NCBI RefSeq assembly: GCF_013167455.1
Contig: NZ_CP038328.1
DNA: 64,000 nt
From: Escherichia coli O157:H7
Lineage (GTDB): Bacteria > Pseudomonadota > Gammaproteobacteria > Enterobacterales > Enterobacteriaceae
Strand: one strand, 5' to 3'
The notes beneath the pieces were generated by a model, which was not told the origin of the DNA, made no database searches, and saw only the letters and a list, made by a program, of their open reading frames with translations. Positions 20,238 to 29,664 of this stretch are shown here, in pieces; positions within the stretch are counted from its first letter, which is position 1, and the number at the start of each line of letters is the position of its first letter. Both the position numbers and the translations under genes were made by a program.

Positions 20238-20270
20238 TAAAAAAACCAACCTTTACGGTTGGTTTTTTTG
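20238..20270 (+). terminator. Intrinsic terminator after yejO
   Basis: aaaaaACCAACC-ttta-CGGTTGGttttttt. Confidence 0.7.
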
Positions 20271-20275
20271 GGATT

Positions 20276-20292
20276 TTTGGTCGGCACGAGAG
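20276..20292. repeat. attL: 17-bp direct repeat TTTGGTCGGCACGAGAG, a copy of the tRNA-Pro 3' end
   Basis: Identical 17-mer at 29850-29866 overlapping the tRNA-Pro 3' end. Confidence 0.85.
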
Positions 20293-20353
20293 TAGTTTAA
20301 TTGAGTATGTAACTACATGATTTTAAATAATATGCTTGATTCAACTTTTAAAC

Positions 20354-20377
20354 CGTATAACTAAACGTATAACTAAA
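20354..20377 (+). repeat. Two tandem CGTATAACTAAA motifs at left end (candidate integrase arm-type sites)
   Basis: Same 12-mer present four times near the right end (29665-29720). Confidence 0.5.
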
Positions 20378-20559
20378 ATCATTTGCTGAAAAAGTGTACA
20401 ATTTAAATGCGAGTTTTCCTGTGGTAAAAGCTCCAACCGTAACGATGTTCGTTATGGTTGCCTTGATGGTCTGCGTGGTCATTATGACCATTCAGGATTT
20501 GAAGGGTGACGCTTCCGACTTCCTCAAATTGAGGTTTCCGAAAATATCAGCGGGTTAGG

Positions 20560-20860
20560 CCAGAGTGCAAATTTGCACTCTGGAACAATTCCAACCAGTA
20601 ATCAGCGCAATTTTGCGCTTTGCTTTAAGTTCAGCGAGTAACCGAAGGCGGAATTACGCCCTCGGTACTCACATATGAGAAACGATATTTCTTCCACCGA
20701 TACCCTTTATTTGGGTATCGCGAGTAAGCCCCAAAATCTGGGTGTTACTCTTACTACCCAAACTACGGGTATTTTCCGTAATTTCATGGTCGAGTTGCAG
20801 ATCTGCAACTCACCCACCAGCCAACGCAATTTTGCGCTTTGCTTTAAGTTCAACCAGTTA
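20560..20860. other. Hairpin-dense non-coding left arm of island with duplicated composite element
   Basis: Perfect 24-bp palindrome CCAGAGTGCAAATTTGCACTCTGG (20561-20584); GAGTTGCAGATCTGCAACTC (20791-20810); near-identical direct repeats containing GCGCAATTTTGCGCTTTGCTTTAAGTTCA (20605-20633 and 20826-20853); further hairpins at 20641-20666 and 20698-20718; no ORF with RBS. Confidence 0.6.
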
Positions 20861-21139
20861 CCGCCGTAACCGCTCCGGCTTCTTCCAGTGGTACGTAATT
20901 TTTGCTTTTTCCCTGTACGTCTGCACGCGGCGACGGTAGGCCAGCATTTCAAGAACGCGGATCCGTATGTTGCGCATATCAACGCCATTAAGTTCTATAC
21001 CATCACGGCGCATCACCTCAGCAACCACACGCGCGTAATTTTCGGCGGTCACGCTGTACGGCTGCGCGGTTTTTTCGTCAGCCTGCTGGCTGATTCCGGC
21101 GACGCGGCGGATTAATCCCAGTATTTCGGCTTCTGTCAT
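20858..21139 (-). CDS. Hypothetical 93-aa protein, last gene of island packaging/capsid operon
   Basis: ORF with RBS AGGTGGAG 41 nt downstream of the capsid-like gene stop; no recognisable motif. Confidence 0.5.
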   Translation of the reverse strand: MTEAEILGLIRRVAGISQQADEKTAQPYSVTAENYARVVAEVMRRDGIELNGVDMRNIRIRVLEMLAYRRRVQTYREKAKITYHWKKPERLRR

Positions 21140-21180
21140 TTCTCCACCTGGTCAGCTATTAAACTGCGAAAATTTCGTAA

Positions 21181-22149
21181 TTATCCCGATACGGGGATCA
21201 CCATATCGGGATTGATGCCGGAAAAATCAGCTTTCGCCAGAACGGTGACGGCCTTATCGAGTTTTTGCCATCCGCAATAGGTGATTGCCCTGAACGCTGT
21301 AGCGTCATTCTGGAAAAGGCTAACCGCCCCTGATTCGGTTTTTATTACCGCCTCATCAGTTGGGGTTATAACCGTGGCTTCAACGTTAATAATCAGCTTT
21401 TGAGCGTCTATCAGCATCATGCGATCCGCCTGTTCGCTCACAATTACCGGTATTCTCAAAAGCTCTATCTGCCAGAACTCAGCATCAGTAAGCTGTAATG
21501 CGTTTTCTACGGGCAAGATTAGCGACGACGTGGAAAGCGTGTTACCGTTCGCTATGTGCTTTTTGAAAAGCTCTATGAAGTTTTCGGCCTCATCAGCACC
21601 ATTAAGCACGCCCTCAGGGGATACGCCAGCCACCTCCTGATCACTGGAAAGAAATTTTTTATCTATTTCTTTCACCGATTCCGATGTGATCAAGTCTCTG
21701 ATCGCTGAATTGGTGCCAGGGGTGCTAAATTTGATTAGCTCGTTATTCAGCATCACAATAGCGCCAAGTTTGCACAGTTTTAGCGCGCTTTCGTTTACTT
21801 CTCCCTCTTTGACAGGGATTTCTTCTGCTTCTTTAAGCCATTTACTACCCTTGCCTGATATTGACTGCAATTTTGCGCCAAACGGAAGATTAAGCGCGCT
21901 GCTGATTAGCTTGCCTGGTACAGACTGCGAAAAAATATATTCTCCAAGCTCTCTTACTATCGGCTCTGCCACCAGCGACGGCATATTATCCGTAGTCATT
22001 CCGGCAATAATGGATTTTTCAAGAAATTTCGATACTGCCGGATCATTTCTTTTCGTCATCTCTATAGCGTCTGCATGGCTGAATTTACACGATGTAAGCA
22101 CGCTGGCGGCGCGAACTGCCGAAACGCCTTTCATGTTTTTAGAAATCAT
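21181..22149 (-). CDS. Putative HK97-fold major capsid protein-like
   Basis: ~322 aa; segments GKGSKWLKEAEEIPVKEGEVNESALKLCKLGAIVMLNNELIKFS and EGVLNGADEAENF resemble conserved Phage_capsid (HK97 family) motifs from memory; start taken at second ATG (9 nt after GGAGG). Confidence 0.5.
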   Translation of the reverse strand: MISKNMKGVSAVRAASVLTSCKFSHADAIEMTKRNDPAVSKFLEKSIIAGMTTDNMPSLVAEPIVRELGEYIFSQSVPGKLISSALNLPFGAKLQSISGKGSKWLKEAEEIPVKEGEVNESALKLCKLGAIVMLNNELIKFSTPGTNSAIRDLITSESVKEIDKKFLSSDQEVAGVSPEGVLNGADEAENFIELFKKHIANGNTLSTSSLILPVENALQLTDAEFWQIELLRIPVIVSEQADRMMLIDAQKLIINVEATVITPTDEAVIKTESGAVSLFQNDATAFRAITYCGWQKLDKAVTVLAKADFSGINPDMVIPVSG

Positions 22150-22300
22150 CTTCTTCATCCTCCTGGAAGCACGGGTTTAGTGTTTCGTGAAAATATGGCA
22201 TCAGAACAGCGGCGGCCTGTAACCGTATTTCGGTCGGCTGCTGCTTGTCGTTCATGATTTCCGTGAGTACATCAATAGGGTCTGTGATGTATTCGCTCAT
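22139..22300 (-). CDS. Small acidic protein (53 aa) between terS-like and capsid-like genes; below ORF-track threshold
   Basis: ATG with GAGGT RBS 11 nt after terS stop; MSEYITDPIDVLTEIMNDKQQ...EDEEDDF; overlaps capsid-like gene start. Confidence 0.4.
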   Translation of the reverse strand: MSEYITDPIDVLTEIMNDKQQPTEIRLQAAAVLMPYFHETLNPCFQEDEEDDF

Positions 22301-22311
22301 AGTTCGCTACC

Positions 22312-22800
22312 TCAGTGTTTTAAGTCTGTTGGTGGCTTAGGGATGGGGAACCGATTTGAGTAGACACTAGCGGCATTGAGTTTTTTAACCTCTTTTTTCC
22401 CAATGCTGCCGATCTTGCGGTGGGTGAACTGGGCCAGCTTAAACGCGGCATCTAAAGCCAGTTTTGGATCTGTGTCCATGTTGTCAATCAGTATCCTGCC
22501 CATTGCTTTGATGGGGTCGGGTAGGCCGTTATCCATCATCTCAATGGTGTTAATTGATGCCCGTTCCGGTGTAACTTTTTCGGTAACTTTCTTTGTAACT
22601 TTTTTCGGTTTTGTAACCTGAAAAGTTACATCAGAAGTTACAGCCTTAAGATACTTTTTCACCTCAGGATCGTTGGATAGCTGCCAGCCTTTAACCCTTG
22701 CGGTCTTTTCGCTGTATCCAGCATGTATAGCGGCTTCCGTGGGATTTGCGCCCCTTGATAACGCATCAGCAAACCGCTTTTTTTTGGTCGTTAATGCCAT
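22312..22800 (-). CDS. Terminase small subunit-like protein (TerS)
   Basis: Starts MALTTKKKRFADALSRGANPTEAAIHAGYSEKTARVKGWQL, matching the recalled TerS HTH motif (Terminase_2-type); GAGG RBS upstream; the 46-aa N-terminal extension in the track ORF is rejected. Confidence 0.6.
   Translation of the reverse strand: MALTTKKKRFADALSRGANPTEAAIHAGYSEKTARVKGWQLSNDPEVKKYLKAVTSDVTFQVTKPKKVTKKVTEKVTPERASINTIEMMDNGLPDPIKAMGRILIDNMDTDPKLALDAAFKLAQFTHRKIGSIGKKEVKKLNAASVYSNRFPIPKPPTDLKH
22565..22643. repeat. Array of AAAGTTAC / GTAACTTT repeats inside terS-like gene (candidate pac/terminase recognition site)
   Basis: At least six copies in both orientations, encoding the KKVTKKVTEKVT peptide; similar copies upstream at 22821-22850. 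Confidence 0.4.
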
Positions 22801-22927
22801 GCAAAAACCTCGTTTTGAGGGGGTGTAACTTTTCGTGTAACTTTTTTGAAAAGCAAAATTTTCTACGAATGAGACGGGGGGCGGTGTCCAGGGCGATCGA
22901 CTTTCCGGCCGGAACACTCCCCCCCTG

Positions 22928-23089
22928 TCATTGCTCACCGAGTAACGAGATCAGGCCTTCAACTTCATCACTCAGCTTGTTTATTCGTGTCTCAAGCTCT
23001 GCGATCTTTTCCATCAATGGCGCTATGGTGTCTCTTGTTTCCTCGCCAATGGCTTTAATGATGCTTGCCTCGCGTTCTGTGATAGCCAT
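22928..23089 (-). CDS. Small coiled-coil protein (53 aa); below ORF-track threshold
   Basis: ATG with GAGG RBS 8 nt upstream, 3 nt after stop of preceding ORF; MAITEREASIIKAIGEE... Confidence 0.4.
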   Translation of the reverse strand: MAITEREASIIKAIGEETRDTIAPLMEKIAELETRINKLSDEVEGLISLLGEQ

Positions 23090-23092
23090 TGT

Positions 23093-23287
23093 TTACGCCT
23101 CACTTGTTGCAATGCCCAGGCGTTCGCGTAACAGTACGCGCGCAAGATGCCCTATTGTTGGTGTTGCCGCCCTGCCGTAGATACCTGATTCATTCATCCG
23201 GCGCACAATATCGAACTGCAACTTTTTAAGCTCGTTAAGGATTTCATGATCAATCATCACGGTAGCGCTTTGCTTTATCTCTTCCAC
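23093..23287 (-). CDS. Small hypothetical protein (64 aa, GTG start), first gene of packaging operon; possibly DNA-binding
   Basis: ORF with GGAG RBS; located just downstream of a terminator. Confidence 0.4.
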   Translation of the reverse strand: MEEIKQSATVMIDHEILNELKKLQFDIVRRMNESGIYGRAATPTIGHLARVLLRERLGIATSEA

Positions 23288-23374
23288 TTTGTTTTCTCCA
23301 GATACTTATCATTGCATAACCAGTATTTTCGATAGATTATCATTAATTAACCATCTTTGAAGATATATGAGATC

Positions 23375-23399
23375 GAAAAAAAGCCGGATTGCTCCGGCT
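23375..23399 (-). terminator. Intrinsic terminator ending the replication module
   Basis: Minus-strand AGCCGGAGCAATCCGGCT followed by TTTTTTT. Confidence 0.7.
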
Positions 23400-23417
23400 A
23401 TGTGCTCACTTCTTCGG

Positions 23418-23657
23418 TTATTCTCCAGCGCTTTTAACGTTGATGGTTGTTACCTGTTCCGCTTCGGCAATCTCCCGTTCTGTCAGCGTGGCAAAGTTTG
23501 CCGCCGCTGTGGTCATGAATGCGCTTATCAGTTCGGGATGTGCTTTCGCATATCCTTCCCCGGCGTTGCGGTCGATGATTTTTATCGACACCCTTAACCA
23601 GTGTTCCGTCAAATCAAGGGCGTGCGATTGTGATTTTTTTGTGTGCTTCGCTGTCAT
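23418..23657 (-). CDS. Hypothetical 79-aa protein downstream of origin
   Basis: ORF only; weak RBS. Confidence 0.4.
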   Translation of the reverse strand: MTAKHTKKSQSHALDLTEHWLRVSIKIIDRNAGEGYAKAHPELISAFMTTAAANFATLTEREIAEAEQVTTINVKSAGE

Positions 23658-23699
23658 AGGCTTTATCTCACAGCAGTAAATTAAAATTTTTGCGTTTTA

Positions 23700-23935
23700 A
23701 CCCTTCACCTGTTCACCTTTTGATATTTTATCTTTTAATTCATAATGTTAAGGGGTGAACAGTTTCACAAAAACTATTCACCAACTATTCACCACTGTTC
23801 ACCCTTGAAGCTCAATAAACAATCAAAAAGGTGAACAGTGAATAGTTTGGTGAACAGTTCATAAATAACTGTTCACCCTATAATATACTGATATAAAAGA
23901 TATTTATGACAGGGTGAACAGTGGTGAACAGTTAT
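23700..23935. repeat. Iteron array (GGTGAACAG / CTGTTCACC, with CTATTCACC variants) and AT-rich tracts: putative island replication origin
   Basis: At least 8 perfect 9-mers in both orientations plus variants, immediately 3' of the primase-helicase gene. Confidence 0.75.
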
Positions 23936-23944
23936 TCCATAAGT

Positions 23945-25762
23945 TTAATTTTTGCTATCGTCATTAGTGACCGATACACATGACGGCATCCAGTCTTCTG
24001 ATTCCTCCGTCAGTGTCACGTTTGAACGCAAACCGTGCTTCGTTTTCCGTTTCATATACTCCCTGCCATATTCCGCCATTGCCCCCGGCATATCTTTACC
24101 GAAGCGCGTCAGTGTTACAGGTTTACCGAATCCGTGTGCCCTCATATATGCCAGATAGGCGTGATAAAGATACCTGCGCGGACTGAACGGAATAATTTCG
24201 GCATTACCCACTAACAGACCATCACACATTACCGACGACATGAGATAGCCGCAGAAGTCCACCAGCGAATCGCCCTCGCGTTTTATCACCAGAGCTTCTT
24301 CTGATTTCTGCTGCTCATACAGCAGGCGTTTAGCTTCGTCCTGGTCAGAAAAACGAGTAAGCAGGTGGCGAATCACAACCGCCAGCTCTCCTTCTATTTT
24401 TTCTGCCAGCATGGGGTCGCGTTCGTTTTCCGGTACAACCTCCGAAAAATTGAATATCACCCGACGACGTGAAATCCCCCCGCTGCGGTCACTGAATGAC
24501 ATGGCGTTATTGTTCACCGCCAACACTACCGCCTGAATGCGTGTTGAGTAGGGGGCTTTATGCTTCGGGTCGATTGCCACCTTGTCACCGCCTGTAATGG
24601 CCTTAATTCCTGCGCCATCACCAGCGTAACGGGTCATATCCGGCATGATAATCAGCGAAAAGCCAACCACTAACGCGCGTTCCCTGGCATCTTCCAGCGC
24701 CTTCATGCTTGCCGATACCGTGTTGGCCTTACCCGCCAGCATGGTGCAAATCTCCGCCATCACGCTTTTACCACTTCCCCCTGGACCTGTTACCTCAATG
24801 AATAACTGCCAGTCGTACCGGTTCGCCAGCACCATGAATAATGCAGCCAGTACGCGATCCGCCTTGCGGTCATTCTCAGCCACCGAACGGCGTAACCACT
24901 TCCAGAAATTCGGCGCATGTGTTGCCAGCGTTTCCCCCTCTGCTGGTGGGCTGAAAGGTAATTCACTGGCAATTAACAACCAGTCGTTTTTGTTATGCTC
25001 CCGAAAATCGCCTGTCCGGGTATCAAAAACACCGTTACTGAATCCAATCAGGTTACGGGCTGTATTCCCCATTACAGGCAAACTTAACTTCATGGTATCG
25101 ACCGCCGATTTAATGGCGTTCTGCGAATAGCTGATCTCCGCATCAATGAAAATCTGTGCCATAGCTCGCTGTAATTCTTTATCCTGTACTGGCTCCCATA
25201 CAACGCCGTTGTAATAGTGAACAGTGTCAGAGTCAGCATGAATCGCCAGTTCACCGCCATAATGTGCCAGGAGAACTTCGCCGCGTTGACTTGCTCCCAT
25301 CTGGTTAAGCGCCAGTGATGAAGCGTTATCGTCTTTTACCCGCTCTTTTTTCTTTACAGGCAGTTCAACTACCTTTTTCTTTTCCGCCTGCTCTGCCCGT
25401 TCACGTTCCAGATATTCGCGCCAGTTCTCCCGTTTCTGGCTGTGCATTCCTTCAGGGTAATAATCAGCATCCCTGACACCTGCCGCTGCCAGTTTCTGCC
25501 CGATGGTATTAACAAGCCCCGAACGCAATAACCCCGCCTGATAGAGACGCACGCGATAGCGTCCGTCCGGTACGATTTGCAGGTTGTCCAGTTCGGCAAG
25601 TTGTTGCTCTCCAAGCCAGACAGGTGGCACGTTATCGCCAGCCAGTCGCCCGTCCTGTTCCTGCCACTGCTTCGCATGTGCCCACGCATCACTACCCGCA
25701 AAAATGATGACTTCCGTCATTTTGTCACGTGGCTGGTGTTTTAAATTTGGCGCTTTTTTCAT
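23945..25762 (-). CDS. Replication initiator primase-helicase (P4 alpha / D5-like)
   Basis: ~605 aa; Walker A VTGPGGSGKS in C-terminal half; N-terminal region consistent with a primase-type domain; ATGA start/stop overlap with upstream ORF. Confidence 0.8.
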   Translation of the reverse strand: MKKAPNLKHQPRDKMTEVIIFAGSDAWAHAKQWQEQDGRLAGDNVPPVWLGEQQLAELDNLQIVPDGRYRVRLYQAGLLRSGLVNTIGQKLAAAGVRDADYYPEGMHSQKRENWREYLERERAEQAEKKKVVELPVKKKERVKDDNASSLALNQMGASQRGEVLLAHYGGELAIHADSDTVHYYNGVVWEPVQDKELQRAMAQIFIDAEISYSQNAIKSAVDTMKLSLPVMGNTARNLIGFSNGVFDTRTGDFREHNKNDWLLIASELPFSPPAEGETLATHAPNFWKWLRRSVAENDRKADRVLAALFMVLANRYDWQLFIEVTGPGGSGKSVMAEICTMLAGKANTVSASMKALEDARERALVVGFSLIIMPDMTRYAGDGAGIKAITGGDKVAIDPKHKAPYSTRIQAVVLAVNNNAMSFSDRSGGISRRRVIFNFSEVVPENERDPMLAEKIEGELAVVIRHLLTRFSDQDEAKRLLYEQQKSEEALVIKREGDSLVDFCGYLMSSVMCDGLLVGNAEIIPFSPRRYLYHAYLAYMRAHGFGKPVTLTRFGKDMPGAMAEYGREYMKRKTKHGLRSNVTLTEESEDWMPSCVSVTNDDSKN

Positions 25763-26058
25763 TTCTGCTCTCTCCACGCGGCAATCATGTTTTTCAGTTC
25801 CTGTAGTTTTTTATCAACATCCATACATGGCACATGGTTATTTCTGGAAGGCGGGATTTCCCGCCTGAATCTGCTAATAAAGATCTCCACGTTCAGCGAA
25901 CTATGAAATGAATAGCCATCACGAATAAAATACACACGGTCAAACATCAGTTCTTTTACCGTTACTCTGTTACCGTTCTTATCCAGATAAATAGCGCCGG
26001 GGATAATTTTTGGGTGTGCATAACCGCTGGCAGTCAAGCCAGATAAATATGTTCTCAT
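25759..26058 (-). CDS. Hypothetical protein (99 aa), translationally coupled to primase
   Basis: ORF with RBS; its stop overlaps the primase start (ATGA). Confidence 0.5.
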   Translation of the reverse strand: MRTYLSGLTASGYAHPKIIPGAIYLDKNGNRVTVKELMFDRVYFIRDGYSFHSSLNVEIFISRFRREIPPSRNNHVPCMDVDKKLQELKNMIAAWREQK

Positions 26059-26064
26059 GATTAT

Positions 26065-26385
26065 TTATCCCCGATTTGAATCAGTATTCGCTTTCTTTAT
26101 GGCATTTAATGCATCTGTGGCATTTTCAATGGTGCACCGTAACGAAATATTAAACTGTCCAAGCATTGCCAGTAACAAACCGATATTACCCATATCAATG
26201 CGCATGACCTTTTCGTCATAGTCCTCATTTTCTGACGCATGCCACATCAGGCTACCAATTGACGCAACAGCCATTGATATATTGTCAGTAGCCCCATCCG
26301 CAGCGGAATAAACCTTTTTAGCAATATCATGCTCACAGTTAAAATGCGGATTAATCAGGTACTGGTAATTTGACATATCAGGCAT
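26065..26385 (-). CDS. Hypothetical protein (106 aa, starts MPDMSNYQY)
   Basis: Start overlaps upstream stop (ATGCCTGA); track ORF N-terminal extension rejected. Confidence 0.5.
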   Translation of the reverse strand: MPDMSNYQYLINPHFNCEHDIAKKVYSAADGATDNISMAVASIGSLMWHASENEDYDEKVMRIDMGNIGLLLAMLGQFNISLRCTIENATDALNAIKKANTDSNRG

Positions 26386-26935
26386 GGCACACCCCCTGAC
26401 GAATACGGGCGGCGAATACAGCAACACAACCGGACGGGCAACGGCTACGCGCTTCGCGTTCCGTCCAGGCGGTTACGTGGATGATTTGATGTTCTGACGC
26501 GCCAAAGATGATAAAGCGCCAGAGAAAGGCGGTTTGAGAATGTACAAGGGTAGGGATAGTAGCCATGTTGGCAGCCTCCTCAGTGTGGTTAAGATAACCG
26601 CCACCGGAAACGCCAATTTCGCTGGTGGCGGACTGTACAGGGTTGGCGTAACCGGACACTGAAGAAACCGGCGCGGATTGCTCCGCCCCCGTACAGCCCA
26701 CCATTGATAAGGTGTGACTATGCGGCACAAAAAAACACGCGGGGCGCGTGTTATGCGCTTCAGTTTTGCCCAGGACGCCAATCCCGGCACCCGTTTTATG
26801 AGGTGCGCGGGAATCATAGCTATTTTCGACACTGGCGATCAACTGGTTTTTTTCTCCGATATTCAGGGCCAGAAAACGCCACACAAAGGCCGTTTGTGTG
26901 TGTACAAGGTGTGGTATATGATTTACGGCAACCAT
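26378..26935 (-). CDS. Hypothetical protein with internal tandem duplication (possible Ash/Icd-like small-protein family); may be one 185-aa ORF or two in-frame cistrons
   Basis: AGGAG RBS before ATG at 26935; motif IPxLVHxQTAFxWRF occurs twice (N-terminus and at the internal Met at 26566, preceded by GAGGAGG); family name is an unverified recollection. Confidence 0.45.
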   Translation of the reverse strand: MVAVNHIPHLVHTQTAFVWRFLALNIGEKNQLIASVENSYDSRAPHKTGAGIGVLGKTEAHNTRPACFFVPHSHTLSMVGCTGAEQSAPVSSVSGYANPVQSATSEIGVSGGGYLNHTEEAANMATIPTLVHSQTAFLWRFIIFGASEHQIIHVTAWTEREARSRCPSGCVAVFAARIRQGVCHA

Positions 26936-26966
26936 AACGGCTCCTAGTTTACGTTGTTGGTTAGAA

Positions 26967-27008
26967 GCCCTGCGAGTGGTAACGACACTTGCGGGGCTTT
27001 GTCTTTTC
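26967..27008 (+). terminator. Plus-strand-specific terminator-like hairpin within the 5' leader region of the minus-strand replication operon
   Basis: 12-bp stem GCCCTGCGAGTG/CACTTGCGGGGC; both mismatches are G-U wobbles only in the plus-strand RNA; followed by TTTGTCTTTTC. Confidence 0.45.
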
Positions 27009-27026
27009 ATCGATTACCTTGATAAA

Positions 27027-27108
27027 GGTGTCAGCCACTATATTAGTAACAGGTGTCAGCCACGTCAATAGTGTTTTTCCGTTTTCTTGTGTGTATACTG
27101 TCAGCCAC
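27027..27108. promoter_or_regulatory. Divergent promoter region with three GTCAGCCAC operator-like repeats
   Basis: GGTGTCAGCCAC at 27027-27038 and 27052-27063, TGTCAGCCAC at 27099-27108 adjacent to a TATACT -10-like hexamer. Confidence 0.55.
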
Positions 27109-27129
27109 CTAATAACGAGGAAATCAGAT

Positions 27130-27309
27130 ATGGCAACAAAAGCAGTTAATGCAAAATCCAAAAAGCTTGAGGCTCGAGTACCACACGCAATAGCTGATGC
27201 TGTAGAAAATTTAAAGGAAGATGGCGAAAGTACAGGGCAATTTATCGTTTCGGCACTTGAAGGCGAGATCAAACGCCGCCAGCGCCGCAAGGCCAAAGAA
27301 TCAGAATAA
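27130..27309 (+). CDS. Small ribbon-helix-helix-like DNA-binding protein (candidate island repressor)
   Basis: 59-aa ORF with AGGAAA RBS; predicted beta-strand/helix/helix pattern typical of Arc/CopG-type proteins; divergent from replication operon. Confidence 0.5.
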   Translation: MATKAVNAKSKKLEARVPHAIADAVENLKEDGESTGQFIVSALEGEIKRRQRRKAKESE

Positions 27310-27366
27310 TCACTATCAGCGCCGTGGTGTGAGGTATTACGGCGCATTGCTATGCAGGACAACACA

Positions 27367-27540
27367 ATGACCGATAAAGAATTGACCAAAACATTATCAC
27401 CGGCACGGAAAAGACGGCGCAGAAAGATAGAGCATGAATCAGAAAGATTCGCACCATGTGCTTTTGCCCTTGAGCAATTCCTTAAAGAGTACAGGGAAAA
27501 GCGCTCATTGCAGGTATGGCAACGAACTGAACCAGACTGA
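27367..27540 (+). CDS. Small basic hypothetical protein (~57 aa)
   Basis: ORF with AGGA RBS; arginine-rich segment RKRRRRK. Confidence 0.35.
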   Translation: MTDKELTKTLSPARKRRRRKIEHESERFAPCAFALEQFLKEYREKRSLQVWQRTEPD

Positions 27541-27633
27541 TTGCATTGCCCACCAGCCTGATAGCGGCTATCATCCCCGTGCTTATGTTTGGGATCACAT
27601 ACACATAAGGCGCAGCGGGTTAATTGTTCAGAA

Positions 27634-27660
27634 AGGCGGCTCCATATCGGGGCCGCTTTT
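27634..27660 (+). terminator. Intrinsic terminator after plus-strand small genes
   Basis: 8-bp stem GCGGCTCC/GGGGCCGC (one G-U), loop ATATC, then TTTTTT. Confidence 0.7.
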
Positions 27661-27688
27661 TTCGTGTTTGTCATATCTGTGATACCCG

Positions 27689-27895
27689 TTAAGCAGCCGT
27701 TCCGCGTGCTTCCTCTTCGCGTTCTTTCTGCCAGGACAACACATCATCCTCATACCATCCGCGACGGCGTAAACCAACGCGAAAACCCTGCGGAAATTCT
27801 CCGGCGTTGATCATGCTTTGCAGCGTGCTGTCTGCCTTGATGTGGATAATTTTTTTTACTTCCTGGCGAAAGATAATTTTTCTGATTGCTTCCAT
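27689..27895 (-). CDS. alpA: AlpA-family phage regulatory protein / excisionase-like HTH
   Basis: 68-aa ORF; motif STLQSMINAGEFPQGFRVGLRRRGWYEDDVLSW resembles AlpA. Confidence 0.75.
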   Translation of the reverse strand: MEAIRKIIFRQEVKKIIHIKADSTLQSMINAGEFPQGFRVGLRRRGWYEDDVLSWQKEREEEARGTAA

Positions 27896-27912
27896 CGTGA
27901 TTTACCTTGTGA

Positions 27913-27930
27913 ATCCGGTGTATTCCGGTG
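27913..27930. promoter_or_regulatory. Two TCCGGTG motifs upstream of alpA (same motif repeated upstream of int)
   Basis: aATCCGGTGtaTTCCGGTGa; the same heptamer occurs about 5 times at 29743-29844. Confidence 0.4.
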
Positions 27931-28033
27931 ACAAATACGGTAAATCATCGGATATGGGTAAAAACAGTTCCCACCGTTTTTAAACGGTATACACCGTTTT
28001 TTATATTGATGATTTGAAATGGAATTATAAAAA

Positions 28034-28060
28034 AAGCGGCATTTCTGCCGCTTCCAGGAT
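28034..28060 (-). terminator. Intrinsic terminator after the 83-aa ORF
   Basis: Minus-strand GGAAGCGGCAGAAATGCCGC followed by TTTTTTT. Confidence 0.6.
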
Positions 28061-28062
28061 TG

Positions 28063-28314
28063 TTACCGCCATTTTTTGGGCCTGCCTCCGATCTTCATAG
28101 ATGCCGGACGTACGACCTTATCAATACTTACCGCCAGATTTCTGGAAGCGCCACGGGATACCAGAAAATCTACTACCTGTTTTTTTGATGGGGCCGTCGT
28201 TCTGTCCTCCGGATCGTAGGTTGACCAAAATTCATGCTGAACCATCAGGGCCAGTTGCAGCCCGTCGCAATTGCATCTGATATTTTTTTGCATCTTAACG
28301 GTTTCATGTTTCAC
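28063..28314 (-). CDS. Hypothetical 83-aa protein between int and alpA (CxC motif, basic C-terminus)
   Basis: ORF only. Confidence 0.4.
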   Translation of the reverse strand: MKHETVKMQKNIRCNCDGLQLALMVQHEFWSTYDPEDRTTAPSKKQVVDFLVSRGASRNLAVSIDKVVRPASMKIGGRPKKWR

Positions 28315-28391
28315 GGCCTTGTCGTTAAATTTGATGCAATTATACGACGGTTTTACATGGTTTTCGTAGTTTTTACTGGTTTTCTGTACAG

Positions 28392-29633
28392 CTACACGGC
28401 TCGGATACCCCTTTTACCACTGGCGAGGGTTACGCCCGTCGCCGCGGCCTCGACAAATTCGCCCCACCAGCGCATCAGCACGATGCGTTTTTCTATGTAG
28501 TTGCTCCGGTTGTATGCCCGTCTAACTTCGTTGGTGTCGACGTGGGCAAGTGCCGCCTCTATTACGTCCGGCTCGAATCCTTCCTCGTTCGCTGCTGTGC
28601 TGAATATGGCGCGTAATCCATGAGACACCAGCACGCCAGCGAATCCCATACGCCGCAATGCTGCGTTAGCTGTCTGGCTGTTCATCGGCTGCTGTGGGTC
28701 TTTCAGACTTGGGAAAACGTAATTGCGGTGGTGGCTGATTGGTTTCATGGCCTCCAGCACCGCCATAGCCTGACCGGAAAGCGGGATAACGTGATCCCTG
28801 CGCATCTTCATGCGTCCGGCAGGTATCGTCCATTGCTTCGCGTCCAGGTTGATTTCATCCCACCGCGTTGATGACGCTTCGGCGGGACGGGTTACGGTCA
28901 GTAACTGCCATTCAATCAGTAATCTGGTCTGCCGTTCTGTTGCCGATACTGATAAAGCCTGCATAAGCTCGGGCAGCTGTTCGGGGCGGATTGTTGGCAT
29001 ATGTTTTTTTACAGGTGAGGGAAACGCCTTACGCACATTCATAGCCGGATTGGCATCAATCAGCCCACTGTTGGCGGCGTAATCCATTACCTCATTAACG
29101 CGCTGTAAAACCCGCTTGAGTGTTTCCAGGTTGCCGCGCTCCTTGATGGGGGTAAGCACTTCAACGAACCTTCGGGCGGTGAGGGTATCTATTGGCGTGT
29201 TGCCGATGAACGGGAATACATATTTATCCAGCGAACGCCAGATGTCTTTAATCGTGTTGGGGGCCAGATTCTGGCTGATTTTCACCTGGTACCATGCCGC
29301 CGCCACATTTTCGAACGTGTTCCCTTGTCTTCGGGCCTCTGTCTCTCTTTTTTGCCTCTCGTGGTCCTGCGGGTCAGTTCCGGCACTGATTAACGTCCTG
29401 TACTCGCTACGGCGTTTTCTGGCATCAGCCAGGGAAACATCTTCAAGCGATCCAAAACTCAGCAATATTCTTTTTTTGTCCGATGGTCGGTAGTAGGAAA
29501 ATCTCCAGAGTTTTGATCCAGACGGTTTGACCAGGAGAAAAAGCCCTCCGCCGTCCTGCAGGGTGTACTCCTTTTGCGCTGGTCTGGCTGCTTTGATCTG
29601 CACTGTGGTTAATGGGTGTGTTTTTCTCGCCAT
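28392..29633 (-). CDS. int: Tyrosine recombinase, P4-family integrase
   Basis: ~413 aa from MARKTHPLT; N-terminal DGGGLFLLVKPSGSKLWRF arm-binding-like domain; catalytic HGLR and RAYNRSNY(Y) motifs; adjacent to tRNA. Confidence 0.9.
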   Translation of the reverse strand: MARKTHPLTTVQIKAARPAQKEYTLQDGGGLFLLVKPSGSKLWRFSYYRPSDKKRILLSFGSLEDVSLADARKRRSEYRTLISAGTDPQDHERQKRETEARRQGNTFENVAAAWYQVKISQNLAPNTIKDIWRSLDKYVFPFIGNTPIDTLTARRFVEVLTPIKERGNLETLKRVLQRVNEVMDYAANSGLIDANPAMNVRKAFPSPVKKHMPTIRPEQLPELMQALSVSATERQTRLLIEWQLLTVTRPAEASSTRWDEINLDAKQWTIPAGRMKMRRDHVIPLSGQAMAVLEAMKPISHHRNYVFPSLKDPQQPMNSQTANAALRRMGFAGVLVSHGLRAIFSTAANEEGFEPDVIEAALAHVDTNEVRRAYNRSNYIEKRIVLMRWWGEFVEAAATGVTLASGKRGIRAV

Positions 29634-29664
29634 ATGTCTATGATTCCACACGAAAAAACAGGGT

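Follow-up and report, generated by a model that had tools for sequence, protein, structure and literature searches.

The DNA considered here is a 64,000-nucleotide (nt) stretch of an Escherichia coli O157:H7 genome (contig NZ_CP038328.1; 'the window' below denotes this whole 64-kb stretch), which contains what appears to be a phage satellite of the phage-inducible chromosomal island (PICI) type. The packaging operon of this satellite includes two open reading frames (ORFs) of 53 codons each, ORF-A (22139..22300) and ORF-B (22928..23089), and the analyses described below incline us, on balance, to the interpretation that both are real genes of that operon, that ORF-A encodes a reduced small terminase subunit (a 'mini-TerS') that acts on the terminase, and that ORF-B encodes a short coiled-coil protein. 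An earlier sequence-only reading had placed the two ORFs correctly, without giving a strand (both lie on the minus strand), and had suggested that such proteins could be scaffolding or capsid-size-determining factors. That suggestion is not borne out for ORF-A, since its predicted helical hairpin matches the oligomerisation hairpin of TerS proteins and its gene follows terS in all contexts examined.

Evidence that both small ORFs are genes

The canonical Shine-Dalgarno (SD) sequences attributed to the two ORFs were found, with a GAGG core 8 nt (ORF-A; upstream sequence ctGAGGtagcgaactATG) and 9 nt (ORF-B; upstream sequence gtGAGGcgtaaacaATG) before the ATG; as a chance baseline, an SD core at positions -16 to -5 precedes only 8 of the 106 ATG-initiated ORFs of 50-80 amino acids (aa) in the window. 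The SD of ORF-A overlaps the terS stop codon and its start lies 11 nt past that stop, and, if M4 (22149) is the start of the capsid-like gene, the two reading frames share the final 11 nt of ORF-A; the AGGAGG SD of the capsid-like gene falls in the acidic-tail codons CAG GAG GAT of ORF-A. The start of ORF-B lies 3 nt past the stop codon of orf64. The tight fit between neighbouring genes that had been claimed for both thus holds on both sides of ORF-A and on the upstream side of ORF-B, but not on the 3' side of ORF-B, where a 127-nt spacer (22801-22927) intervenes. Other parts of the earlier description were confirmed, including the acidic character of ORF-A (13 D/E versus 2 K/R; isoelectric point (pI) 4.05), the a/d heptad pattern over residues 22-50 that underlies the coiled-coil assignment of ORF-B, and the location in a packaging operon, as a Terminase_2 terS and an HK97-type capsid homologue flank ORF-A.

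Conservation of the reading frames and synonymous-site behaviour, both proposed earlier as checks, were analyzed in an alignment of the module that covered 15 related loci (85-97% nucleotide identity), one of which (L002) stops short of ORF-B. No stop codon or frameshift was found in either ORF among related loci; both ORFs thus withstand the refutation proposed earlier, which was a reading frame not conserved in homologues. ORF-A has 43 variable sites in the 15-locus alignment (12/8/23 at the three codon positions) and a ratio of nonsynonymous to synonymous substitution (dN/dS) of 0.21, and ORF-B has six among the close relatives (1/1/4) and a dN/dS of 0.115; for comparison, the same alignment gave 0.17 for terS and 0.15 for the capsid-like gene. 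Deeper relatives, reached through TerS relatives at 54-62% identity, have the same gene order in a Salmonella island (L020/L021) and in metagenomic loci L023, L024 and L026, with ORF-A homologues of 50-53 aa and, in those loci that extend far enough upstream, 56-aa homologues of ORF-B. In comparisons with these Salmonella and metagenomic relatives the proportion of synonymous differences (pS) was 0.55-0.95, at which synonymous sites are saturated, and that of nonsynonymous differences (pN) was 0.25-0.44, while the dN/dS of ORF-B against Salmonella was 0.175. Both ORFs are under purifying selection, with an omega (dN/dS) of ~0.1-0.3 at shallow and deep divergence.

From these patterns of conservation, ORF-A and ORF-B are regarded as genuine conserved genes. 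The NCBI annotation pipeline (PGAP) annotates both in E. coli O157:H7 PV15-279 as 'hypothetical protein', and neither has a family in Pfam, NCBIfam or PADLOC. A word-indexed protein search returned close relatives alone for both ORFs, and scans of viral contigs returned near-identical E. coli loci alone.

ORF-A and the oligomerisation hairpin of small terminases

ORF-A encodes a 53-aa acidic protein in which a helix (residues 8-17), a turn and a second helix (23-37) are followed by a disordered acidic tail (38-53). The gene directly upstream, terS (22312..22800, minus strand), encodes a 162-aa, SF6/PaP3-like small terminase that matches Pfam Terminase_2 (E 1.4e-10) and, from end to end, phrog_641 (1.5e-43). 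Its AlphaFold2 (AF2) model has an N-terminal helix-turn-helix (HTH; residues 1-56), a disordered linker of KVT repeats (57-82), a hairpin (H96-107/H112-126) and a basic tail, and the Foldseek matches of this model were the SF6 DNA-binding domain, 3zqq, NV1 and PaP3. In the PHROGs library, residues 3-39 of ORF-A align with positions 89-125 of the same phrog_641, 'terminase small subunit' (E 1.1e-6), so that one family is matched by both adjacent proteins.

Searches of larger collections led to the same proteins. A tblastn search of ORF-A against 50,697 phage records gave 24 weak matches (best E 4e-3), most of them inside annotated TerS genes. A profile built from the ORF-A family was used for an exhaustive search of 1.84 billion representative proteins, and 106 of these scored E<=1e-3; about 30 of the 106 are stand-alone proteins of 49-75 aa with the core DPxDFLLxVMND..R..AA.aLMPYFH and, in most, an acidic tail. 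Five of the 106 are Pfam Terminase_2 proteins in which the hairpin motif is followed by a GKKE..KF..PP tail, as in the window TerS, and some carry two tandem hairpins in one chain (e.g. P0046, P0055 and P0100), which fits hairpins acting together. When one stand-alone member (P0028) was compared with the phage collection, all 20 matches were TerS genes (best E 8e-7), each at one place per record. In addition, the Terminase_2 hits can be aligned with the entire window TerS (31-34% identity, 71-77 bits), and ORF-A aligns with the core of those same proteins (~37-56% identity, ~40 bits).

The AF2 model of ORF-A contains two helices only, as a confidently predicted hairpin (H8-17/H23-37; predicted local distance difference test score ~95) with a disordered tail, and the hairpin falls in the register of H96-107/H112-126 of TerS. 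The best Foldseek matches of this model in the Protein Data Bank (PDB) were the small terminases of PaP3 (root-mean-square deviation 1.0 over 28 columns) and NV1 (41% identity), with 6w7t and 7joq as the top entries, at a probability of 0.94. The oligomerisation core of PaP3 TerS is built from the alpha4-alpha5 hairpin together with a beta-strand, and the protein ends in a disordered, acidic C-terminal tail (PMC7672466). ORF-A therefore resembles SF6/PaP3-type TerS proteins (Terminase_2; PDB 3ZQQ, 6W7T, 7JOQ) in having the counterpart of the alpha4-alpha5 hairpin, in register and in predicted fold, and, as in PaP3, a disordered acidic tail. It differs from them in size (53 aa, about one third of a TerS), in being encoded in addition to a complete terS, and in two missing parts, namely the N-terminal HTH (only 7 residues precede the hairpin and there is no match to Pfam Terminase_2, whose model spans the HTH) and the GKKE..KF..PP tail of the neighbouring TerS, in place of which ORF-A has the acidic tail. 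This difference in charge was seen in 8 of 8 cognate pairs, with a net charge of +4 to +8 over the last 35 residues of TerS and of -5 to -8 over the last 15 residues of ORF-A. As predicted from homology and modelled structure, ORF-A would thus be a pared-down TerS that retains only the oligomerisation hairpin and carries an acidic tail; as it has no DNA-binding domain, it is not itself a TerS.

Several observations weigh against this assignment. The Foldseek E-values of 0.8-1.5 are not significant, as expected for a match of 28 residues, and the ORF-A hairpin also resembles single HEAT repeats; seven of the 106 proteins are long HEAT-repeat proteins with weak, repeat-by-repeat matches. Direct similarity to the neighbouring TerS is weak: BLASTP of ORF-A against it gave no alignment, a Smith-Waterman comparison with shuffled sequences gave z = 3.2 only, and hhalign of the ORF-A family against the window TerS subfamily was weak (E 0.008 and 0.14), so the homology rests on intermediate proteins. 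On the grounds of the BLASTP, shuffling and hhalign results, a recent origin of ORF-A by duplication of the adjacent terS was rejected; the two appear instead to be distant paralogues.

Sequence searches of the PDB with ORF-A, TerS and orf64 returned weak matches to TerS DNA-binding domains and nothing else. The profile search also brought up a separate family of ~180-290 aa (P0074, P0076, P0084, P0089, P0095 and P0118) that ends in the same hairpin motif (..DP.DFLLAVMND..R..AA.ALLPYF..), and several of its members start MQ(R/K)L..QL(Q/K)RL(F/Y).LP; another set of alpha-proteobacterial-looking proteins, starting MPRGSKPGERRGGRQ, has two tandem hairpins. Neither of these groups has a Pfam family.

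Gene context of ORF-A

An ORF-A-like gene lies directly 3' of terS in every context examined in which it is present, and what follows it varies. The order terS, ORF-A, capsid-like gene is found in the E. coli loci and in L021, L023, L024 and L026, where the overlap of ORF-A with the capsid-like gene is 11 nt in the window and 8 nt in L023. In L027 the pair is followed by terL, and in L029 it stands at a contig end. A chromosomal island beside rpoD and dnaG (L039) has the order int, capsid gene, 68-aa gene, terS, ORF-A, with the capsid gene upstream of terS, and a phage-like head module (L040) has the order HNH, terS, ORF-A, terL, portal, ClpP protease, capsid. L039 and L040, which both carry the terS-ORF-A pair, encode nearly the same TerS behind the same cos-like sequence, and these features suggest a satellite paired with the type of phage that serves as its helper. 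Since terS is the constant partner of ORF-A and the capsid gene is not, a scaffold function was rejected for ORF-A.

The same survey supplied observations that count against the proposed action of ORF-A on the terminase. In L023, terS has been swapped for one of another subfamily while ORF-A stayed, which argues against a finely matched TerS partner, and ORF-A is absent from E. coli islands L016 and L017 (order HNH, terS, capsid-like gene) and from a Hafnia prophage (L018) whose TerS is 57% identical to that of the window, so that ORF-A is not universally required. Fusion of TerS and ORF-A by stop-codon read-through was considered as a general mechanism and rejected, as the two adjacent genes share a frame in L027 and L039, whereas their frames differ in the window.

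In a Salmonella enterica contig (L020, 2114-6993), genes for a 644-aa protease-capsid fusion and a helper-type portal lie no more than 1.7 kb beyond the satellite module, which consists of orf64-like, ORF-B-like, terS, ORF-A-like and capsid-like genes. This Salmonella satellite is either adjacent to or inserted in a helper-type prophage.

ORF-B and the adjacent gene orf64

ORF-B encodes a leucine-zipper-like protein of pI 4.4, in which the a/d heptad, read from the sequence, is uninterrupted. Its relatives share a conserved N-terminal (T/S)ERExS(I/M)(I/M) motif and an invariant C-terminal VEGLISLLGE, in which 7 of 10 codons show synonymous differences while the residues are unchanged, and they differ by an in-frame indel of 4 codons. 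ORF-B is known in only three divergent lineages (E. coli, Salmonella and L023), where it is always coupled to orf64 and always lies just upstream of the spacer. No match to ORF-B was found in the Pfam, NCBIfam, PADLOC and PHROGs profile libraries, a search of its alignment against 100,044 species-representative genomes found nothing, and no relative was found outside the three satellite lineages among all fetched loci, including the helper-type prophage segments L018-L020. An NCBI cluster name for ORF-B, 'NusG antitermination', was disregarded, as no profile supports it.

The adjacent gene, orf64 (23093..23287, minus strand), is the first gene of the operon, has a GTG start and a GGAG SD, is translationally coupled to ORF-B, and is kept together with it in Salmonella (L021) and L023. 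No family in Pfam, NCBIfam, PADLOC or PHROGs matches orf64; a ribbon-helix-helix fold is possible from its sequence pattern alone, and no database support for this assignment was obtained. By their position, ORF-B and orf64 appear to occupy the place that HNH holds in related phages. ORF-B is predicted to be a short protein that dimerises as a coiled coil and is co-produced with orf64, and it is a weak guess that it serves as a satellite-specific adaptor or regulator acting with orf64.

Proposed action of ORF-A and alternative explanations

From the reality, homology, predicted fold and synteny of ORF-A set out above, we infer its physical association with the terminase and the consequence of that association. 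ORF-A, made in step with TerS, would dock on or co-assemble with the TerS ring through its hairpin, and the resulting mixed or capped rings would have fewer DNA-binding domains and basic tails and additional acidic tails, which would alter how the ring engages DNA, TerL or HNH. As the terS-ORF-A pair occurs both in satellites and in phage-like head modules of the HNH-cos type, the satellite probably acquired ORF-A together with cos and terS rather than having invented it as a capsid factor of its own. A broader proposal, which is possible and is offered tentatively, is that ORF-A represents an unrecognised and widespread mini-TerS family, a third component of HNH-cos terminases, and that satellites captured a cos-terS-miniTerS cassette, possibly to keep their own TerS apart from that of the helper or to poison the latter. 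The pair in the phage-like module favours an accessory role for the cognate terminase, while the lack of a stand-alone copy in deposited phage genomes and the closeness of satellite TerS to helper-type TerS favour interference.

A role purely in interference, in which ORF-A is a decoy analogous to Ppi whose hairpin mimicry poisons or sequesters the helper TerS ring (or TerL, through the acidic tail) so that satellite DNA alone is packaged, is unlikely. It would accord with a small protein encoded beside a satellite terS, as is described for Ppi (10.1101/2022.09.08.507074), with a TerS hairpin that lacks the DNA-binding domain and basic tail, and with the finding of no stand-alone ORF-A copy among the 50,697 deposited phage genomes; the 57% identity between satellite and helper-type prophage TerS also makes discrimination between them a real problem. 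However, the pair is found in a complete phage-like head module (L040) and before terL (L027), which would be odd for a pure anti-phage weapon, and the ORF-A hairpin is unlike the one common to enterobacterial satellite and helper-type TerS proteins.

It is quite improbable that either small protein, or both, serves in scaffolding or capsid-size determination and works with the capsid-like protein in the assembly of small capsids, in the manner of CpmB or Sid. In enterobacterial satellites the translation of ORF-A is coupled to that of the capsid-like gene, the capsid-like protein lacks the delta/scaffold part of the helper-type protease-capsid fusion, and the small coiled-coil ORF-B has, like CpmB-type scaffolds, a C-terminus that does not vary, but the homology of ORF-A is to TerS and its gene tracks terS rather than the capsid gene (terL is next in L027 and L040, and the capsid gene is upstream of terS in L039). 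Similarly, the cos-like site, terS and ORF-A separate ORF-B from the capsid gene, ORF-B has no similarity in the helper-type prophage segments examined, and islands L016 and L017 have the capsid-like gene without either small ORF. The view that neither ORF is functional, in which ORF-A would be the decaying remnant of a terS duplication and ORF-B would be a chance ORF within regulatory DNA, is very improbable. Both ORFs are short, neither has a curated family, and the ORF-B family is very narrow, with three divergent members; this view is nevertheless already disfavoured by the purifying selection on both ORFs, by their individual SD sites, by the retention of 49-59 aa and an acidic tail in ORF-A-like proteins from E. 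coli to loci of 55-60% GC, and by the in-frame indel and the decapeptide that is invariant despite synonymous changes in ORF-B.

The cos-like spacer and repeats within terS

In HNH-cos phages the cos site lies between the HNH gene and terS. The spacer between ORF-B and terS (22801..22927, minus strand; 127 nt) contains a GC-rich core, TCGCCCTGGACACCGCCCCCC, and two AAAGTTACAC repeats. Its sequence is kept between PICIs and the Hafnia prophage (L018), in which it is flanked by the HNH gene and terS, and the GGACACCGCCCCC core is also found upstream of terS in L039 and L040; overall, the GC-rich core ranges over E. coli and Salmonella satellites, the Hafnia prophage and loci of 55-57% GC. From this distribution, the spacer is likely a candidate cos or TerS-binding region, and the region of the GC-rich core is probably the cos of this HNH-cos phage lineage. 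The GGACACCGCCCCC core and the AGAAAA and GTTA(C/A) motifs that follow it lie at 22860-22925 in the window, 4860-4990 in L018, 9400-9510 in L039 and 1330-1410 in L040.

Within terS, three AAAGTTAC repeats (22571..22602, minus strand) encode the KVT repeats of the TerS linker. This sequence occurs 7 times in the window, where 1.8 occurrences are expected, and 6 of these are at 22571-22844; the sites, at 22571-22602, 22622-22629 and 22825-22844, are in or just upstream of terS. Copy number differs in relatives P0013 and P0014, and the TerS proteins are of 154, 158 and 162 aa. The repeats may be candidate TerS-binding (cosB-like) sites that double as coding sequence.

The packaging operon and the satellite element

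The operon runs, on the minus strand, in the order orf64, ORF-B, cos-like spacer, terS, ORF-A, capsid-like gene and orf93. An intrinsic terminator after orf79 (23382..23399, minus strand), with a 7-bp stem (5 GC pairs) followed by TTTTTTT, lies upstream of orf64 and so marks the upstream operon boundary; a promoter scan of 20700-24100 found no sigma-70 consensus. Two direct repeats, GATA(C/GA)TTATCATT, 30 nt apart at 23301-23313 and 23331-23344, between the terminator and the orf64 start, could be a candidate operator of the packaging operon.

For terS, the longest ORF starts at a GTG at 22938, would encode 208 aa and would overlap ORF-B by 11 nt, while conservation and annotation both place the start at the ATG at 22800, for a protein of 162 aa; a gene caller that favours the longest ORF would mask ORF-B. 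A scan of species-representative genomes with TerS found nothing. The capsid-like gene (21181..22149, minus strand) encodes a Ccm-like protein with an HK97 fold (Pfam Phage_capsid 1.3e-6) and probably begins at M4 (22149), which is the start chosen by PGAP in relatives. The protein covers only the C-terminal parts of the phrog_617 and phrog_10 profiles, and it is the counterpart of the mature capsid domain in helper-type protease-capsid fusions. At its 3' end (21181-21230) the gene extends 15 codons beyond the end seen in most relatives (..VLAKADFSGINPDMVIPVSG versus ..VLAKS), where a 1-nt alignment difference indicates that the usual stop was lost in this genome. The last operon gene, orf93 (20858..21139, minus strand; phrog_1561, 3.9e-54), is widespread among E. 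coli islands.

The whole satellite, from integrase to orf93 (20269..29874; ~9.6 kb), is inserted at tRNA-Pro(ggg), with imperfect att-like direct repeats at 20269-20300 and 29843-29874 and the tRNA gene at 29852-29928. The integrase ORF is listed at 28392-29651 (minus strand), and profile matches on this strand also include AlpA, a DUF4222 protein and a D5-type primase. An absence of tail and lysis genes is part of the definition of PICIs. The element has int, an AlpA-type activator, a pri-rep gene with ori-like iterons, packaging genes, a size of ~10 kb and att repeats, and by this gene content it appears to be a PICI-type satellite, for which induction by a helper is putative. Its chromosomal neighbours are ccm genes, a response regulator and an autotransporter, and near-identical E. 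coli loci L004 and L005 have the same insertion context. Directly 3' of the primase gene, iterons at 23754-23942 comprise three repeat copies that contain GGTGAACAGTT, consistent with the replication origin of PICIs, which is described as 3' of pri-rep; orf79, the intrinsic terminator and the packaging block follow.

Other repeats lie near the ends of the island. A perfect 26-nt repeat, CCGTATAACTAAACGTATAACTAAAA, is found just inside both ends (20353-20378 and 29696-29721), is made up of GTATAACTAAA units, with a related site at 29662-29689, and may provide candidate integrase arm-type sites. Between orf93 and the island end, two 53-nt direct repeats (20592-20644 and 20811-20863) are 83% identical and contain an internal palindrome, GCGCAATTTTGCGC.

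Among 5,426 complete E. coli genomes, 219 contain the cassette, with an identity of at least 95.8% in every case. Far more E. coli genomes match orf93 (20858-21139, phrog_1561) and orf79 (23418-23657, phrog_1231) than the terS-capsid core, as 1,691 genomes have some match compared with the 219 that have the core; these two genes are common to islands with other packaging modules.

Comparison with other satellites and implications

Terminase holoenzymes are commonly described as consisting of TerS and TerL, plus HNH in HK97-like cos phages. Among satellite proteins, ORF-A resembles, by description, the phage packaging interference protein (Ppi) of the SaPIs, a small protein associated with the satellite terS and proposed to act on a TerS; ORF-A-like genes differ in that they also occur in phage-like head modules. 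A second parallel is Rpp (RppA/B/C) of EcCICFT073-type E. coli PICIs, a satellite protein of 144-153 aa that mimics part of a TerS to engage the terminase, in this case the winged-HTH DNA-binding domain of lambda Nu1, and that has a C-terminal coiled coil (PMC6739421). In contrast, ORF-A mimics the oligomerisation hairpin of another TerS class and has no DNA-binding domain, each of the two small proteins is 53 aa, no HTH is predicted in ORF-A and ORF-B is a coiled coil only, and this island has its own terS and no rpp.

Like the SaPIbov5 Ccm system, this island carries a capsid homologue and appears to be matched to HNH-cos helper phages. SaPIbov5 relies on the TerS of its helper, whereas this island has its own TerS, to whose gene ORF-A is linked. 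CpmB-like internal scaffolds are small and helical with an invariant C-terminus, and size scaffolds of the CpmB/Sid type bind the helper capsid protein and often share a C-terminal motif with the helper scaffold. ORF-B shares its small size and helical character with CpmB of SaPI1, shows a heptad pattern and ends in an invariant segment, and no matching motif was found in the helper-type prophage segments L018-L020. A scaffold-like role of ORF-B is possible, but its gene lies upstream of the cos-like site and is coupled to orf64, not to the capsid gene. ORF-B and orf64 are satellite-specific and are found exactly where related phages carry HNH.

No description of a separately encoded TerS hairpin protein was found in the literature searched, although absence there is not proof. 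The ORF-A family is invisible in annotation as it has no Pfam or NCBIfam model; a profile built from the family alignment would label it, and terS plus mini-TerS would provide a simple marker of this class of packaging module. If it is true that a TerS core without a DNA-binding domain is conserved as a separate protein, it would represent either a new regulatory subunit of the packaging motor or a new route of interference by satellites. The distinction between these two roles bears on how PICIs that have their own terS win the competition for packaging, a question that, for islands of Gram-negative bacteria, has so far been answered for Rpp-type islands only.

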